Shown: positions 3,305-28,999 of the stretch, one piece after another
How the letters are laid out: each line of letters starts with the position of its first letter
Numbering within the stretch: the first letter of the stretch is position 1
NCBI RefSeq assembly: GCF_000195855.1
Contig: NC_002677.1
Coordinates: forward strand, 1,080,001 to 1,112,000
Reading direction: 5' to 3'
Source of the DNA: Mycobacterium leprae TN
GTDB taxonomy: Bacteria > Actinomycetota > Actinomycetes > Mycobacteriales > Mycobacteriaceae
Length of the DNA stretch: 32,000 nucleotides
Made by a program: the position numbers and the translations under genes
The notes under the pieces: generated by a model
Database searches by the model: none
What the model was told of the DNA's origin: nothing
The model's input: the letters and a program-made list of their open reading frames with translations, nothing else

Positions 3305-4524
3305 ACAACTCGGTTAGGGAGCCGACCCGCGGGCGAAGGGGCAGCCCGCCGGTCGCCGATGCCGCATTATCGGTTAATCCCCCCTTGTCGGTTGTGCTGG
3401 CGGGCGGCGGTACCGCCGGCCATGTGGAGCCCGCAATGGCCGTTGCCGATGCACTCAGAGCGCTGGATCCACAGGTCCGGATCACCGCGTTGGGCACTTC
3501 GCGTGGGCTGGAGACCAGGCTAGTACCCGAGCGTGGCTACCACCTCGAGTTGATCACACCGGTGCCATTGCCGCGTAAGCTTACCGGCGACCTGGCCCGG
3601 CTCCCATTACGAGTGTGGCGTGCCGTCCGAGAGACCCGCGCGGTGTTCGAAGTCGTCGAGGCCCATGTGGTGGTGGGTTTCGGTGGGTACGTGGCACTGC
3701 CAGCGTACCTCGCCGCACGTGGTATCCCCAGGGTGCGGCGTCGTATCCCGGTGGTGGTTCACGAGGCCAACGCCCGGGCCGGCATCGCCAATCGTGTCGG
3801 TGTGCGTACTGCCGAACGGGTGCTTTCGGCAGTACCCGGTTCCGGATTACGTGGTGCCGAGGTGGTGGGAGTGCCGATCCACGCGACCATTACTACGCTG
3901 AACCGCCCGGCATTGCGAGCTGACGCCCGCAAGCATTTTGGCTTCACCGACGACGCGCGGGTGTTGTTGGTTTTCGGTGGTTCTCAGGGTGCAGTTTCGC
4001 TGAATCGGGCGGTTGCCGGTGCTGCCGAGGACCTGGCCGCCTCGGGAGTGGCCGTGCTGCATGCCTACGGACTCAAGAACACCCTCGAGCTGCGCACACC
4101 CGAGTACGGTGAGCCGCCGTACGTCGCGGTGCCCTACCTTGACCGAATGGACTTAGCGTACGCCGCCGCTGACCTGGTGATTTGTCGGTCCGGAGCAATG
4201 ACGGTCGCCGAAGTGTCGGCCGTCGGCTTGCCAGCCATCTATGTACCGTTCCCAATTGGCAACGGTGAGCAACGGCTCAATGCACTGCCGGTGGTTAACG
4301 CCGGCGGCGGCCTGGTGGTCGCCGACGCTGACTTGACGCCCGGTCTGGTGGCGCGGCAAGTTGTCAGGTTGTTCAGCGATCCGGCGCAGCTGGCGGCAAT
4401 GACGGCGGCCGCCGCGCGAGTGGGACATCGCGATGCGGCACATCATGTCGCCAAGGTGGCACTGGATCTGGCACGTGCAGAGCGTGACACGGCGTCAGGA
4501 CGGTCGGCCGGAGGGAAACCGTGA
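3301..4524 (+). CDS. murG: UDP-N-acetylglucosamine--N-acetylmuramyl-(pentapeptide) pyrophosphoryl-undecaprenol GlcNAc transferase MurG
   Basis: 407-aa ORF with the N-terminal [10 protein letters not shown] glycine loop, FGGSQGA, and [19 protein letters not shown]...EQRLNA. Its GTG start overlaps the ftsW stop (GTGA). Confidence 0.92.
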
Positions 4525-6008
4525 ACGCCGGCCAGTTGCCGCCCGAGTTGCAGCGGGTGCACATGGTGGGCATTGGGGGATCCGGGATGTCGGGTATTGC
4601 GCGCATCCTGTTAGACCGGGGCGGTCTGGTGTCTGGCTCAGATGCCAAGGAGTCGCGTGTTGTGCACGCACTGCGGGCGCGCGGCGCGCTGATCCGCATC
4701 GGACATGATGCGTCATTGCTGGACTTGCTGCCTGGCGGCGCTACCGCAGTCATTACCATCCGCACTGCCATCCCCAAGACTAACCCCGAGCTGGTCGAAG
4801 CCCGGAGGCGCGGCATTCCGGTTCTATTGCGATCGGCCGTGTTGGCCAGGCTGATGGATGGGTGTACCACGCTGATGGTTGCTGGCACACACGGCAAGAC
4901 TACGACGACGTCGATGCTCGTTGTGGCCCTGCAGCACTGTGGATGTGACCCATCCTTCGTGGTTGGCGGTGAGCTTGCCGTGGTGGGCACCAACGCCCAC
5001 CACGGCCTCGGCGCCTGCTTCGTTGCCGAGGCCGACGAAAGCGATGGCTCGTTACTGGAATACACGCCCAACGTAGCGGTGGTCACCAACATCGACTCCG
5101 ATCACTTGGATTTCTACGGTAGTGTCGATGCTTATATCAGGGTGTTCGACTCCTTCGTGGAGCGATTCGCACTGGGGGGAGCGCTCGTGGTGTGCAACGA
5201 CGATCCTGGGGCGGCCGCGCTGGCCCGGCGCACCGCCGAGCTTGGGATCCGGGTGTTGCGCTACGGCTCCGACGACCGGATAGGTGAGACCTTGGCCGCC
5301 AGGTTGTTGTCGTGGGAGCAACAGGGCACCGGAGCGGTCGCGCACATCCAGTTGGCTGGTCAACCAAACTCACGGGTGATGCGGCTACCGGTACCTGGGC
5401 GACACATGGCGCTCAATGCGCTAGGTGCGTTGCTGGCGGCGATCGAGATTGGTGCGTCGACCGATGAAGTGCTCGACGGGCTGGCTGGTTTCAGGGGTGT
5501 GCGTCGCCGCTTCGAACTGGTTGGGACTTCAGGAGTCGGCCAGGCCTCAAACTCGCTGGTGCGGGTGTTCGACGACTACGCACACCATCCAACGGAGATC
5601 AGCGCGACGCTAGCGGCGTTCCGTATAATGCTTGAGCAGAGCGGCGGCGGACGCTGCATCGTGGTGTTTCAGCCCCACCTATATTCGCGGACAAAGGCTT
5701 TGTCCAGAGAATTTGGTCGTGCCCTGAGTGCTGCCGATGAGGTGTTCATCGTTGGTGTCAACGGTGCCCGCGAACAACCGCTTGCTGGCGTCAGCGGAGC
5801 TAGTGTTGCTAAACATGTCAGCGTGCCGGTGCGCTATATACCAGACTATTCGGCGGTCGTCATAGAGGTTGCTGCTGCGGCTGGCCCCGGCGACGTCATC
5901 GTTACGATGGGTATCGGCGACGTGGGCCTGCTGGGGCCGGAGATCGTTGCCGCGCTGCGGGTCCGGGCCAACTGCAACACTCCCGGCTGTTCGGGAGTGT
6001 TGCAGTGA
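4521..6008 (+). CDS. murC: UDP-N-acetylmuramate--L-alanine ligase MurC
   Basis: 495-aa ORF with [22 protein letters not shown] and [10 protein letters not shown]. Its GTG start overlaps the murG stop (GTGA). Confidence 0.92.
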
Positions 6009-13090: not shown

Positions 13091-14016
13091 TTGGGTGGTG
13101 GTGTTGTGGTGGGCTGGTGGGGTGTGGGTGGTTGATCTGCGCTAGAAGGTTGCCGTATGTGCCGCCGACGGCCGGATCATCGATGCACTGTTCACTAACA
13201 CGATACTGCTGCACCCGGCGGCATGCCTGCTTGCTGGCTGAGGGCCGGTCAACAAGCCGCCGACACCGATACCAGCGGCAGAAATGGTGCAAGGGATAAC
13301 ATCAGGTGCGAATAGTTATACCGTGCACGGGGACGTGCCTGTTCAGGTGCGGCCACATTGACCACGCCGACACCTCAAGGCCATGACATGCACACTAAAA
13401 CGCCCCTACCCCGCGGCGCTAACAACTATCCTCACACTCACGCCTGCATCGATATCGCCTTCAGCACAGCCCAGGTGCCCAGCCCCTGGCATCATCAACA
13501 TGTAGACCAAGCAGCATCCACCACCGACATGCTTACGTGCGCCGCGCTAATCGTGTCCACTGCGGCAAAGCACACGAAGCCTCATCGAAAGCAGGCAGTC
13601 AGCCACCCACCAACAAAAACCCCGCAACACAGCAAAACACGTCAACAGGATTCCGGGCTGCCCCCCACGACTACCGAACATATCGGCCAGTCATAAAACG
13701 CAAAAACAGCCATTTCACCCACCACCTATGAAACCAACCGAACAACTCACCGCCACAGACACAAGACAGCAACCTGCAGTTCAAGGGAAGCAGCGGTGGC
13801 CAAACCAGCTGAAACCGTGTCCAGCACCATTAAGTGTATATACGGTACACTCGCTTAGCGCGTTTCACACCGAGGATTCTGTTGACCATGTCGAAGGTGC
13901 TAAATCCTATGCACTCTATCTTTCGGATTCCGCAGAGACCACCCCCAAGAAGGAAGGAGTATTCATCTAGTCGGCATGGGCGCAGGAAGCCGAATGAAAT
14001 TCGGCATCAGCAGCGC
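13091..14016 (+). repeat. RLEP dispersed repeat, copy 1 (926 bp shared with copy 2)
   Basis: It contains caccgataccagcggcagaa (13264-13283) and the reverse complement of tgcatgtcatggccttgagg (13373-13392), spanning 129 bp. These match the RLEP diagnostic primer pair as I recall it. It is near-identical to 16810-17727 in reverse complement: every ORF-track translation falling wholly inside the shared segment is identical between copies, and those crossing its ends or the 8-bp indel differ only there. The boundaries are defined by where the two copies diverge. Confidence 0.93.
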
Positions 14017-16063: not shown

Positions 16064-16832
16064 CTAGCTGTCCAATGTCAGGTCCTTGCTCTTGTTGACC
16101 AATGTGGTGGCTGACTCGACATAGAACATCCGCAGCATGGTAAGAATACCGGTGATGTCGGCGTCCTCGGCGCACCAATAAGAGGTAATGCTGCCTGCGT
16201 CAGTAAGTCCCGTCAGGACGGTGAAATCATCTAGAGAAACACCTTTTCCAATTCGTAATTCCTGCAGCCGATCGGCTGCCGCGATAGCGCTATCGGTCCT
16301 TATGCGGTCACCCAGATAGCCGTTGTGGCGCGCAACACTGCGCAATGCGGTCTCGCCGAACCCGCGATACAGAATCGGTATCGGCCGGTGAGGTTGACTG
16401 TATCTCCAAACGCAGTGTCCGGTAGGACTCACTATCGACTTGCGTCCAACGCGGTTGCCACAGCGTCTGCATCAAGTCAAGGAATTCATCGTTACGTTTG
16501 CCGCGGGCAGCGAACAGCTCCCCTCATAAAGGCGAATCCCTCTTTATTATCAACCGACTCCGATTCCGAACTCCACTCGCCCGGACACCAGGTACCAATG
16601 GCTTCGGTGGCTGAATAAGGACTGCGCACAGCGGGAATGTAACCGGTGCTGACAAACCGCTGCCGGGTGGCGACTTAGGTGTAGAGATACGCGGTGGGGT
16701 GTTTAGGGTTTCCAAGTTGACTACGTGGTAAGGGATCCCGATGCCGTCGTCATAATCGAGGTCGTCGGCTGCCTTGGCGATCTCGATGATTTCCCGGGTG
16801 TTTAGGAACGCGCTGCTGATGCCGAATTTCAT
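16064..16832 (-). pseudogene. Luciferase-like monooxygenase (LLM)/F420-dependent oxidoreductase family pseudogene
   Basis: Minus-strand fragments in three frames: MKFGISSAFLNTREIIEIAKAADDLDYDD (a typical LLM N-terminus), NDEFLDLMQTLWQP, HRPIPILYRGFGETALRSVARHNGYLG, and AAADRLQELRIGKGVSLDDFTVL. Stops and frameshifts lie between them. The ATG and first 7 codons lie inside the RLEP-shared sequence. Confidence 0.5.
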
Positions 16833-17727
16833 TCGGCTTCCTGCGCCCATGCCGACTAGATGAATACTCCTTCCTTCTTGGGGGTGGTCTCTGCGGAATC
16901 CGAAAGATAGAGTGCATAGGATTTAGCACCTTCGACATGGTCAACAGAATCCTCGGTGTGAAACGCGCTAAGCGAGTGTACCGTATATACACTTAATGGT
17001 GCTGGACACGGTTTCAGCTGGTTTGGCCACCGCTGCTTCCCTTGAACTGCAGGTTGCTGTCTTGTGTCTGTGGCGGTGAGTTGTTCGGTTGGTTTCATAG
17101 GTGGTGGGTGAAATGGCTGTTTTTGCGTTTTATGACTGGCCGATATGTTCGGTAGTCGTGGGGGGCAGCCCGGAATCCTGTTGACGTGTTTTGCTGTGTT
17201 GCGGGGTTTTTGTTGGTGGGTGGCTGACTGCCTGCTTTCGATGAGGCTTCGTGTGCTTTGCCGCAGTGGACACGATTAGCGCGGCGCACGTAAGCATGTC
17301 GGTGGTGGATGCTGCTTGGTCTACATGTTGATGATGCCAGGGGCTGGGCACCTGGGCTGTGCTGAAGGCGATATCGATGCAGGCGTGAGTGTGAGGATAG
17401 TTGTTAGCGCCGCGGGGTAGGGGCGTTTTAGTGTGCATGTCATGGCCTTGAGGTGTCGGCGTGGTCAATGTGGCCGCACCTGAACAGGCACGTCCCCGTG
17501 CACGGTATAACTATTCGCACCTGATGTTATCCCTTGCACCATTTCTGCCGCTGGTATCGGTGTCGGCGGCTTGTTGACCGGCCCTCAGCCAGCAAGCAGG
17601 CATGCCGCCGGGTGCAGCAGTATCGTGTTAGTGAACAGTGCATCGATGATCCGGCCGTCGGCGGCACATACGGCAACCTTCTAGCGCAGATCAACCACCC
17701 ACACCCCACCACAACACCACCACCCAA
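16810..17727 (-). repeat. RLEP dispersed repeat, copy 2 (inverted relative to copy 1; 918 bp)
   Basis: It is the reverse complement of 13091-14016, apart from one 8-bp unit missing in the GT-rich head. Both diagnostic primer words are present (tgcatgtcatggccttgagg at 17434-17453). Confidence 0.93.
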
Positions 17728-26100: not shown

Positions 26101-26669
26101 TTTCCCAAAGTCAGGTCTGATGTGTTCGCTAGTGTTGTGTGTTGGTGATTGTTTTAACGTTTGATTTTGTTGAGGGGGTGTCTGCGGTCTGGGTTCAGGT
26201 GAACGGTGTGGTGTGTTCGTTGTAGGTGGGGATCGCGGTTTCGAGGTTGTTGATATCGGTGAACGTGTTGTGGCGGGTGATGGTGGTGAAGAAGATTTTG
26301 GTTATGTGTCAGCTATGAGCAGCTTGTCGGTGTGAAGTGCAGTGTGGCTTGCTGGTTATCCTGTAGCCAGGATCGGCTGCTGGGGGTTTGTGGGTTGGCG
26401 TAGTTGTCGCAGATTGGGGCATGCCTGTATGTGTGGGTGTGTTTTGGTGGCGAGTTTGAAGGTAGTGGCAGAATCGGTTTGGGTGTGATCCAGCTGCTTG
26501 GGTCTGGGGCTTCATTGTCGACGCTAGAGCATAATCGCGGCCGCGGGTTGAGTAGGCCTGGGGCGCGGTGTGGGTGTATTACTTTCGGTCCGTTTCCCAG
26601 ACTGGTCGCCGATCCTGGTGTGCGCGTCTTTGCGCACCGGGCTTTTCATGGTCACTACCGTTAGGCGGT

Positions 26670-27870
26670 GGGAATACTGGTCCAAGGGTTGGGTATTGTG
26701 GTGATTTGGTAGCGGTACCGGGTGACCGGTATCGAGGTCGGGTTCAATAGGGTGGTCTCTTCTGCGTCAATCGGTTTTCACCGTTTTTCGGAGGTGGTGA
26801 ACTGCCGGCGAATGTCTTTCCATCTCCGGCGATACAGTGCTCGAAACCACCGATGGTTGATCTGTGCCAGCACGGCCCCCGGATTGCGCTGTGATTTCCT
26901 GTTTGCCAGGGCACGGATCTTGGCTTTGACCGACCGTCGTGCCCGGTCGGCGATACAAGTCCTAGACATGCCCACGTGGTCGTTGCCTTCTTGGGTGTCC
27001 ACCCGGTGTGGAAGCCGCGAAAGTCCATACCAGTTACCGAAGTGCGCGGTCTTTGTCTTTGCAGTCGACAGCTGCAGACCTAGAGGCGTAAGCATCGAGT
27101 TTATTTCGTTTTGCAGGCCTCTGGCGTGTCTGGTCGCCATGTGCTGAGTACAACGCAGTCGTCCGCTACGCGGGACGACTGCGTTGTACTCAGCAGGCCT
27201 GTGACGCGGCGCCGACTAGGCAGGTAAGCAGTGGACATCGAGCCGCACGGTTTCCATGGCTGCATCCGATACTCATCGAGCCCAGGCAAGGCGATGTTGG
27301 TCAGCACCGGCGACAAGATATTGCCCTGAGACGTTCCGGTGTGAGTGTTCTGGTGCTCACCAGACTCGGTGAGCACACCGGCCTTAGAAAACGCCTTCAC
27401 CAGGACCAAGTACGCGTTTATCCTTGACTGGCAATAGCATCCGCTCCAACAGAGCAGAATGTGAGATAGAGTCACAGCGCACCTCAATGTCTGCATACAG
27501 CACCCACCGATAGCTTGTAGTGCTGTATTGGTGAATTTCGGCGATCGTGTCCCTGAGATCGCCGCTTGGGGGCGGAATCCAGGGGAGATCGGCTCGAAAG
27601 CGGCCTCGACGACAGGCTCCAACACCAGCTTCAACGCAGCCTGAACGACTCGATCCGCAGATTGTCCAACAACCCGCTACCTCGACGATTTCCTCAACAT
27701 GGGCTCCGGTCCGGGCGTCCACACCAGCAGTATTCGCCCCATAGTTGCCCGTGACCCAGTCAAACGCCACCAACAATGTTCGCCGGGTCACACACGAGAT
27801 TGAACAGGTCATCAAACCTGCGGCCACGATCGACCGACGATGACCCCAACCCGATAAATCGTGTTGGCCA
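26670..27870 (-). pseudogene. Group II intron-type reverse transcriptase/maturase pseudogene
   Basis: Minus-strand fragments in order: LLVAFDWVTGNYGANTAGVDARTG (RT-0/1), KLVLEPVVEAAFEPISPGFRPQ (RT-2a/3), WVLYADIEVRCDSISHSALLERM, GTSQGNILSPVLTNIALPGLD (RT-4), RVADDCVVLS (the YADD box), LGLQLSTAKTKTAHF (RT-7), AVLAQINHRWFRALYRR (X/maturase domain), and a terminal RYRYQITTIPNPW. At least 3 frameshifts or stops are present. Confidence 0.8.
27143..27194. repeat. Perfect palindrome (22-bp arms, 8-nt spacer) inside the RT pseudogene
   Basis: gctgagtacaacgcagtcgtcc (27143-27164), spacer gctacgcg, then ggacgactgcgttgtactcagc (27173-27194). The arms are exact reverse complements. Confidence 0.95.
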
Positions 27871-28999
27871 CACAACACCCAAGCAGGACCTAGGACGATT
27901 CCTCCCCTTCCCGACGCCACCCAAGGCCAAGGTGCCCCCGCTTCACCGTTCCTGCTGCGACAGGCCCGGCGGCGAAGATCTCTCACCTTCACTGCCATGC
28001 CAATCATCAGCACTTCGTGACGCACGTGGATCCAGGTCGAGCCCGACCACATCACGCCGTTTGGTCTCCCACGTCGGGGTCGGTAACGAACTTGAAGGTC
28101 TTCACGCGATGCGACTGGATGCCCCCACTTATGCCAGATCCGCGCGACCAAGGAAAACGAAATCCCCCACAGCCATCAACTGCTCCGGTGACGGGCCGCT
28201 CCGACGCTGAACGGCCGATTCGCATAACATCGCCGACCAACGTCTCTACGAGCACCATGACCTCATCGATCACCGAAGCACGTCCCGTCCCCGGCGTACC
28301 CGAACCGCGATATCAGTATCTAGCCACTCCATCGGACACCAACCACACAATCCACGCCCGTGTCACCTGCCCCACCAGCACCCACAACACCCTCGTCAAC
28401 CACCCCAGCCGACCCCGGTCGCCATCGCGCAACTCCAAGACAGCAACCACATACACCGCCCACTTACCTCAACCAACCACACCTAAACGCCTCAAAACCA
28501 CCCACCACTAGAACAACCCGTCTTCGAACTTAGTCGCCAATCCTTTGGTTATCTTTCCCCCACGGGTCGCTGTTACGCCGAATATCAAGCTATCCCACCG
28601 AAATTCTTGGGTGCTGGCTCCGACGCAAATGTCGTGTCCATGTAATCTGCGGTGAATTATCCTGGCTGGCAAAAAATAAAAACTAATCCGACTCCGGGCC
28701 GTCGACGACCATTACTCAACTCAAGTAAGAATCCGTTGATCATTAAGTCATTCATCTGTTCGGCTGATAAACCCTGCACAATTTTCATATAGCTCTGTTA
28801 CAGGGACTTGGTGACCGGGCAGTCAGCTATGTGTAGACTTTCGTCCTCGGTATATTTCTTAAATTTCGCTGCGAACATATCGCGCATGTCCTGATAGCTG
28901 TAGACGTTAGGCGCGTTGCTGGGTTTCTCCTCCATTAGGAAATAAGGGATGTTATTTTGTCGTCCACTGTTGGCTGCGGGATGGTGTCGTCGAGCGGAA

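Follow-up and report, generated by a model that had tools for sequence, protein, structure and literature searches.

Among described systems, the closest analogue of the element analyzed here is RmInt1, a group II intron that resides in the transposase coding region of ISRm2011-2, an insertion sequence (IS) of the IS630-Tc1 family in Sinorhizobium meliloti (PMC4238363). The reverse transcriptase (RT) of RmInt1 has no endonuclease domain, splicing is needed for expression of the transposase, and copies of the IS serve as homing sites for the intron (PMC4238363). The same nesting occurs in LEPREP, a dispersed repeat of Mycobacterium leprae published under that name (LPMREP in Mycobacterium lepromatosis) as a group II maturase pseudogene, and in intact relatives of LEPREP. 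The likeness, between an element of the Alphaproteobacteria and one of the Actinobacteria, is one of architecture and not of sequence comparison, and unlike RmInt1, LEPREP is dead in both of its components (the RT of its relatives is ~489 amino acids [aa] long).

The copy that we analyzed lies in a window of 32,000 nucleotides (nt) of M. leprae TN (the whole stretch of DNA under study; contig NC_002677.1, positions 1,080,001 to 1,112,000), in which the complete unit occupies positions 26129 to 28511 on the minus strand (2,383 nt). It is very probably a dead IS of the IS630 family (Tc1/mariner-like) whose transposase gene is split by an ordinary group II intron, itself dead. The repeat and the RT nature of its gene were already known, and the nested IS630/intron architecture is of a known kind that is newly spelled out for LEPREP: in the searchable papers, the IS630 host, the intron boundaries, the remnant of domains V and VI, and the asymmetric substitutions are not described for LEPREP or LPMREP. 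A first-pass annotation, made from the letters of the window, had treated the unit as one RT-bearing element with skewed flanks and had overlooked a second mobile element, an IS of the IS630 family that hosts the intron, to which the inverted repeats with their CTAG ends and most of the head and tail belong.

The host insertion sequence and its intact relatives

In 14 of 83 related loci, the intron sits at residue 168/169 of an IS630 transposase; these are L002, L003, and L019 to L029, whose RTs are the closest to that of LEPREP, plus L037. Among loci with at least 200 nt of sequence past the intron, 10 of 58 have it at the IS630 transposase site and 48 in various other sites. When the exons of L003 are joined, they encode an IS630-type transposase split at ...DVVGLYLNP/REKAIV... 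(the slash marks the intron). Four composites (L020, L003, L021, and L028) are complete, measuring 3,314 to 3,339 nt and bounded by CTAGTG...CACTAG, and their terminal inverted repeats match at 14 to 25 of 30 positions, with CTAGTG as the common terminus. On the IS630 family transposase model NF033545 (cutoff, 100), the L020 transposase reaches 278 bits, and it has a DDE_3 domain (PF13358) plus helix-turn-helix (HTH) domains. These four composites, from actinobacteria in soil metagenomes, have the same ends, the same insertion codon (GLYLNP/P), and the same order of parts as LEPREP, and their RTs are the closest to its own, at ~50% identity to the reconstructed pseudoprotein. Unlike LEPREP, they retain open reading frames (ORFs), their domain V/VI passes the Rfam model RF00029 (shown for L003), and their GC skew is weak. 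A further relative, L001 from Streptomyces sp. b84, has its intron between inverted-repeat arms at positions 3385 to 3409 and 5582 to 5600 (GACCCCTGTGG ... CCACAGGGGTC) with no IS, and its target is of a different kind from the IS630 site.

Aligned piecewise with these composites (a whole-length MAFFT alignment misaligned the head), LEPREP resolves into the same parts. The left terminal inverted repeat (28482 to 28511, minus strand) begins CTAGTGGTG, its CTAG occupying 28511 to 28508, and over its first 9 nt it does not differ from the left ends of L020, L003, L025, and L026; the right terminal inverted repeat (26129 to 26158, minus strand) ends ...CACTAG. The two repeats match at 19 of 30 positions, which bears out the terminal inverted repeats proposed in the first-pass annotation. 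Between the left end and the intron lies the 5' exon (28026 to 28511, minus strand), a G+T-rich pseudogene of 486 nt that corresponds to the N-terminal, HTH-containing part of the transposase, from which ~70 to 80 nt have been deleted; at the DNA level it can be aligned with exon 1 of the relatives, and in tblastn searches with intact transposases it yields the matches GIQSHRVKTFKFVTDP and DVVGLDLDP. On the other side of the intron, the 3' exon (26129 to 26546, minus strand) is a C+A-rich pseudogene of 418 nt for the C-terminal (DDE_3) part, with one deletion of 139 nt and two small ones, and its tblastn matches to IS630 transposases read ICDNYA..WL..LHFTPTSCS and PFT*TQTAD.

Joining the two exons gives colinear tblastn matches to intact transposases (E values of 2e-7 to 1e-6), one of which spans the splice junction (DVVGLDLDP/PAAAIML against DVVGLYLNP/PENAIVL) with the reading frame restored. 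Because this match runs across the junction of the joined exons, both intron boundaries are independently confirmed, and because the head and tail are transposase exons with the ends of the relatives, the CTAG ends and inverted repeats belong to the IS and not to a retroelement. The ~640 nt upstream and ~540 nt downstream of the RT ORF that had been described as strongly skewed flanks are indeed skewed; they are not, however, a single entity: 486 and 418 nt of them lie outside the intron.

This arrangement bears on the possibility that an ordinary group II intron, now dead, was put straight into the chromosome, with the CTAGs and inverted repeats being either coincidental or a duplicated target. 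CTAG is frequent in the window (69 occurrences), and many relatives of the intron family live outside IS630 elements, but the unit common to all copies reaches 486 nt and 418 nt past the intron ends, and these extensions share homology with exons of IS630 transposases and terminate as the intact relatives do. Moreover, no intron-only copy (28025 to 26547 without exons) was seen among the contigs recovered. We regard direct insertion of the intron into the chromosome as very improbable.

The group II intron and its decay

The intron remnant extends from 28025 to 26547 on the minus strand (1,479 nt, compared with ~2,181 nt in intact relatives). By alignment, its 5' end is the GTGCG at 28025 to 28021, which is invariant among LEPREP and L001 to L003, and its 3' end, at 26547, reads ...CTCAAC and aligns with the intron ends of the same three loci. 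In L001 to L003, RF00029 gives a domain V/VI match of 50 to 56 bits directly past the RT stop codon, and the homologous stretch of LEPREP, in alignment with them, is AAAGCCCGGTGCGCAAAGACGCGCACACCAGGATCGGCGACCAG...GGCCTACTCAAC; Rfam lists no D1-D4 family for these three loci. We built a family-specific covariance model of domains V and VI, R1, from 56 relatives, and over the 32 kb, it returns one significant match, at 26659 to 26547 on the minus strand (53.7 bits; E value of 2e-10), which marks the decayed domain V, domain VI, and 3' splice site. The match is full length, with ~14 pairs broken, the AGC triad kept, and the end ...CAAC in place.

Searched with Rfam, the window contains no group II family either at gathering thresholds or at E values up to 10. 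Since RF00029 misses the window even at an E value of 10 and yet scores 50 to 56 bits in the relatives, domain V/VI in LEPREP is a decayed remnant and not a functional domain. The first-pass annotation had found neither a convincing domain V nor GUGYG/AY termini by eye, but the GTGCG at 28025 to 28021, domain V/VI at 26659 to 26547, and the terminal CAAC are all there. It had also held that a normal domain V/VI, if found by covariance models, would make the element an ordinary dead intron: a covariance model does find the domain, by way of R1, in the form of a decayed remnant that the general Rfam model overlooks. Upstream, ~200 nt of 5' ribozyme sequence are left (27826 to 28025, minus strand), corresponding to the start of domain I, and relative to the intact loci, ~510 nt are deleted, comprising most of domains I to III and the first ~38 RT codons. 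The intact relatives have domains I to III, so that LEPREP has lost most of this region rather than never having had it. On two of the relatives a separate observation can be made: in L019 (2193 to 2304) and L047 (3971 to 4082), the family consensus is followed only as far as GGCGAGCGG.CTGGGC, midway through domain VI, possibly because the 3' end of the intron has been rearranged or has received a further insertion.

The RT/maturase pseudogene (26661 to 27840, minus strand) was delimited by tblastn with P0001, the nearest RT relative, and on LEPREP this search reveals that the reading frame changes at least seven times, that one in-frame stop interrupts it, and that YADD has become VADD. A dead group II-type RT on the minus strand had thus been recognized correctly in the first-pass annotation, with at least three frame breaks counted; its statement that all blocks from RT-0 to RT-7 are present does not hold, as a 109-nt deletion has removed the RT-1/early RT-2 segment (consensus AGTFRPLPVRERKIPKPGGSGKLRKLGIPVIADR) and a 90-nt deletion has removed part of the X/maturase domain. 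Pfam searches with single LEPREP ORFs produced an RVT_1 match only, below threshold. A 390-aa pseudoprotein stitched from three minus-strand frames, in turn, matches thousands of proteins of 460 to 505 aa with RVT_1 and GIIM domains, the best at an E value of 6e-119 and 52% identity. P0001 itself scores 368.5 bits on TIGR04416 (cutoff, 300), and its closest solved structure is the GsI-IIC RT (E value of 1e-58), with G2L4 structures reaching an E value of only 2e-7. In BLASTN searches against plasmids, only LEPREP positions 519 to 1971 find matches, always in annotated ltrA introns.

Other classes of RT were also considered for this gene. Drt3a scores 51.6 bits (cutoff, 200), Retron St85 32.8 bits (cutoff, 235), and Drt2 29.7 bits (cutoff, 390), and an identity as a retron, diversity-generating retroelement, or Drt RT was rejected on the basis of model scores and structure matches.

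These results also weigh on the proposal that LEPREP is a noncanonical retroelement that lacks a group II ribozyme, owns the CTAG ends, and has its RT between a GT-rich and a CA-rich untranslated region. The failure of Rfam to report a group II family in the window and the strong skew of the ends would suit such an element; GTGCG, domain V/VI, and the 3' end, however, stand exactly where intact relatives have them, the head and tail derive from the coding region of a transposase, and the RT is far from those of retrons, Drt systems, and G2L4. A noncanonical retroelement is therefore hardly credible. The suggestion in the first-pass annotation of another retroelement architecture, or of a ribozyme decayed past recognition, gives way to a canonical intron, as indicated by the alignment of relatives and the R1 model; by these sequence comparisons, the RT of LEPREP sits in a canonical group II intron on the minus strand, running from 28025 to 26547.

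One mutation within the RT gene is of a different type. Two arms of 23 bp, at 27142 to 27164 and 27173 to 27195, form a perfect inverted repeat around a loop of 8 nt (27142 to 27195 overall); the repeat, which the consensus of the relatives lacks, takes the place of the codons immediately before the YADD box. These codons (consensus PRWRIVRY) have been swapped for the reverse complement of the ADDCVVLS codons, which looks like a fold-back or template-switch mutation.

Copies of the unit and their history

The element in the window is a copy of LEPREP and a member of the dispersed repeat family of M. leprae, as the first-pass annotation had proposed from its length: the products of several ORFs within 26129 to 28511 are identical to M. 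leprae database proteins (MLCB2492.31, MLCB1788.49, and others), and the name is that of the literature. Copies were gathered through exact-protein lookups. The span shared across M. leprae copies, as measured, is 2,383 nt, all of which is present at 99.9 to 100% identity in nine other M. leprae assemblies (reads or genomes), and partial copies in M. leprae assemblies are 99.7 to 100% identical. A second genomic copy was located in AP014567.1 (364320 to 374541). Scans of genome contigs for the rest of the eight genomic copies gave no match to an exact 22-mer and 32 stretches with protein patterns, none of them confirmed, and a protein search with the 255-aa LEPREP ORF, aimed at M. lepromatosis, returned the M. 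leprae cluster only.

The proposed boundaries at 26129 and 28511, with CTAG as the terminus, agree with the other copies. The two CTAGs are the exact start or end of several unitigs that carry LEPREP; three distinct 5' flanks all diverge directly before CTAG, two of five distinct 3' flanks diverge directly after it, and CTAG stands on both sides at every junction examined, in the M. leprae copies as well as in the four intact relatives. The surroundings of the copy in the window are, as had been noted, somewhat richer in AT, the flanks having a GC content of 0.44 to 0.50 and values next to the element falling to 0.37 to 0.50. Between 19000 and 32000, outside LEPREP, no ORF of at least 200 aa occurs beyond 19255, leaving the repeat in surroundings with few genes and, as it appears, many pseudogenes. 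In one M. leprae draft (LVXE01000050.1; L014), the 5' flank is identical to that of the copy in AP014567.1 (L013), the copy is without ~42 nt (element positions 1014 to 1055), and a 3' flank different from that of L013 follows, a combination that suggests either that copies have recombined in this strain or that it is an artifact of assembly.

In its live form, as reconstructed from intact relatives and from the established biology of group II introns and IS630 elements, the host would have been an IS with inverted repeats CTAGTGGTG...CACTAG, CTAG target sites, and a single gene for an HTH and DDE transposase. Directly after the ...DVVGLYLNP codons, the guest intron would have followed, beginning with GUGCG and continuing through domains I to III, an RT/maturase ORF in domain IV that had no endonuclease domain, and domains V and VI. 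Transcription of the IS and splicing aided by the RT/maturase would restore the transposase mRNA, and the transposase could then move the entire 3.3-kb unit by cut-and-paste. The ribonucleoprotein of the intron could retrohome into intronless copies of the same IS, and the intron would also travel with the IS. In the common ancestor of the leprosy bacilli, ~950 nt were then lost (the bulk of domains I to III, the beginning of the RT gene together with RT-1, a piece of the X domain, and segments of the transposase gene), and frameshifts accumulated. Today, the units are inert DNA kept as near-identical copies, from which neither protein can be made and in which the ribozyme core is gone.

Several points do not sit easily with this account of a nested IS and intron. 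IS630-family elements insert at TA, classically inside CTAG, and duplicate the TA; for LEPREP, the TA duplication is taken over from the behavior of the family. A search for exact complementarity between exon-binding and intron-binding sites (EBS/IBS) gave inconsistent candidates among the relatives. The 21 to 24 nt past the right CTAG (CGAACACATCAGACCTGACTT) are common to three of the five distinct 3' junctions (noted in the window and in L013, L007, and L015), for which simple transposition does not account. In the window, this segment (26108 to 26128, minus strand; 21 nt) occurs once only, and in the copies that share it, the corresponding 5' flanks have nothing in common. A further difficulty concerns timing: the unit was crippled before the two species split, yet it is near-identical within M. 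leprae (99.7 to 100%, compared with ~79% identity between LEPREP and LPMREP over the 399 nt compared), and late trans-mobilization or gene conversion must be invoked.

As for the shared 3' extension, LPMREP comes in two length classes in M. lepromatosis, 2,506 nt (two copies) and 2,844 to 2,850 nt (three copies), according to the supplement of the published description. Because a split of 2:3 is seen in both species, three of the copies may derive from one duplication that included flanking DNA, as this pattern suggests.

Strand-asymmetric substitutions at the ends

No other 400-nt windows of the 32 kb are as skewed toward G+T or A+C as the two ends of LEPREP, whose G+T fractions on the plus strand are 0.76 and 0.28, compared with 0.538 +/- 0.036 outside repeats; the skew pointed out in the first-pass annotation is thus extreme for the region, and copies of a second repeat, RLEP, come next. 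When substitutions are scored at columns at least 80% conserved among the relatives, the head of the element (positions 1 to 700) has changed from A/C to G/T at 65 of 164 sites and from G/T to A/C at 40 of 233 (odds ratio, 3.17; P = 9e-7). The middle (701 to 1700) is balanced, at 57 of 383 and 66 of 431, respectively (odds ratio, 0.97; P = 0.92), and in the tail (1701 to 2383), the direction is reversed, with 15 of 261 and 68 of 192 (odds ratio, 0.11; P = 4e-16). The sign thus flips between the two halves of the element, the effect fades with distance from each end, and the asymmetry, made up mostly of transitions, extends over the exon/intron boundaries. We conclude that the GT-rich head and the CA-rich tail are a real mutational scar of strand-asymmetric substitutions.

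The head of LPMREP allows the process to be dated, over the 399 nt of its core that are printed. This core starts TAGTGGTGTGTG, and its first 399 nt are as G+T rich as those of LEPREP (supplement). Polarized with outgroups, the changes common to both species in the head comprise 32 from A/C to G/T and 13 in reverse, and lineage-specific changes show 5 against 12 in LEPREP and 5 against 4 in LPMREP. Because the excess is confined to the common changes, the process at the head predates the split between M. leprae and M. lepromatosis and has since stopped.

A bias of this form might be native to the IS lineage, whether as composition or through selection on codons or structure. In the four intact relatives, whose two genes are co-oriented, the GC skew runs in the same direction, weakly, from about +0.2 on the left to -0.2 to -0.3 on the right; the skew of LEPREP, however, is two to three times stronger, its changes hit positions conserved among relatives and destroy reading frames, the substitutions are asymmetric once polarized, and the skew passes the exon/intron boundaries. 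We consider native composition or selection, with the composite identity of LEPREP kept, an unlikely source of the skew.

The types of change favor errors of synthesis over base damage. In the head, C>T transitions (25 of 96) are accompanied by A>G (22 of 68), in the tail G>A (42 of 123) by T>C (11 of 69), and the neighbors of the changed bases contain no deaminase-like motif. With A>G and C>T about equally frequent in the head and no context motif, G.T mispairs made by a polymerase fit better than deamination of cytosine, be it chemical or enzymatic. Because each strand is enriched in G+T when read 5' to 3' inward from its end, synthesis would have run inward: under the explanation that we prefer, error-prone synthesis primed from flanking DNA would have entered the element from both ends, repeatedly, either as gap repair at insertion or as synthesis-dependent repair of the excision gap, and G.T mispairs would have enriched the newly made strand in G and T. 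This explanation is speculative, and although we place it first, we think it possible rather than probable.

Two considerations tell against inward synthesis. The excess of G>A over T>C in the tail (42 of 123 against 11 of 69) is less symmetric than the mispair model predicts, and the same geometry would be expected from convergent transcription. The latter is a serious rival, which leaves the composite identity of LEPREP untouched: inward promoters in both inverted repeats would drive transcription from either end, and the exposed nontemplate strand would gain C>T and A>G changes, so that the sense strand would become GT rich at the 5' end and the antisense strand at the 3' end. The geometry fits, including the reversal of sign and the decay from the ends, and a weak skew in the same direction is already present in the intact relatives; deamination would favor cytosine, however, and A>G in the head (22 of 68) is about equal to C>T (25 of 96), while RLEP is patterned alike and has no known inward promoters. 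We view transcription-associated mutation as a real but doubtful explanation of the skew.

Two copies of RLEP, which we identified by the standard RLEP PCR primer sites, lie in the window at 13091 to 14016 (plus strand) and 16810 to 17727 (minus strand); they are inverted, identical over 914 nt (100%), and separated by ~2.8 kb. Both show a LEPREP-like pattern, with a G+T-rich start followed by a long C+A-rich stretch. A derivation of RLEP from LEPREP was considered and rejected: beyond low-complexity GT runs, RLEP has no homology to IS630 transposases, to the RT, or to LEPREP. The printed core starts of RLPM (~400 nt) and REPLPM (~45 nt) of M. lepromatosis are G+T rich like the head of LPMREP (Table S3B, PMC9248898), so that in both leprosy bacilli several repeat families may carry the end skew. 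We tentatively raise the possibility, well short of an even chance, that G+T-rich 5' ends are a scar of the copying of dispersed repeats in the ancestor of the leprosy bacilli, on LEPREP and the unrelated RLEP alike; at every round of movement or repair, the inward-running strand would have been made anew from each end by a polymerase prone to G.T mispairs.

With these assignments, one of the four classic repeat families of M. leprae is resolved in nature, and the suggestion of a new retroelement architecture is removed. The exact boundaries of its parts can be used for annotation, for diagnostics that target the repeat, and for the reconstruction of genome rearrangements. Wider interest attaches only to the gradient of strand-asymmetric substitutions that runs inward from the ends: should it stem from repair synthesis in the course of transposition, it would offer a new type of evidence on the copying of bacterial cut-and-paste elements, and should repeat families of the leprosy bacilli indeed share such a scar, the replication step of transposition, or gap repair, could generally be read from it, and the way in which the enigmatic RLEP-type repeats spread might be revealed.

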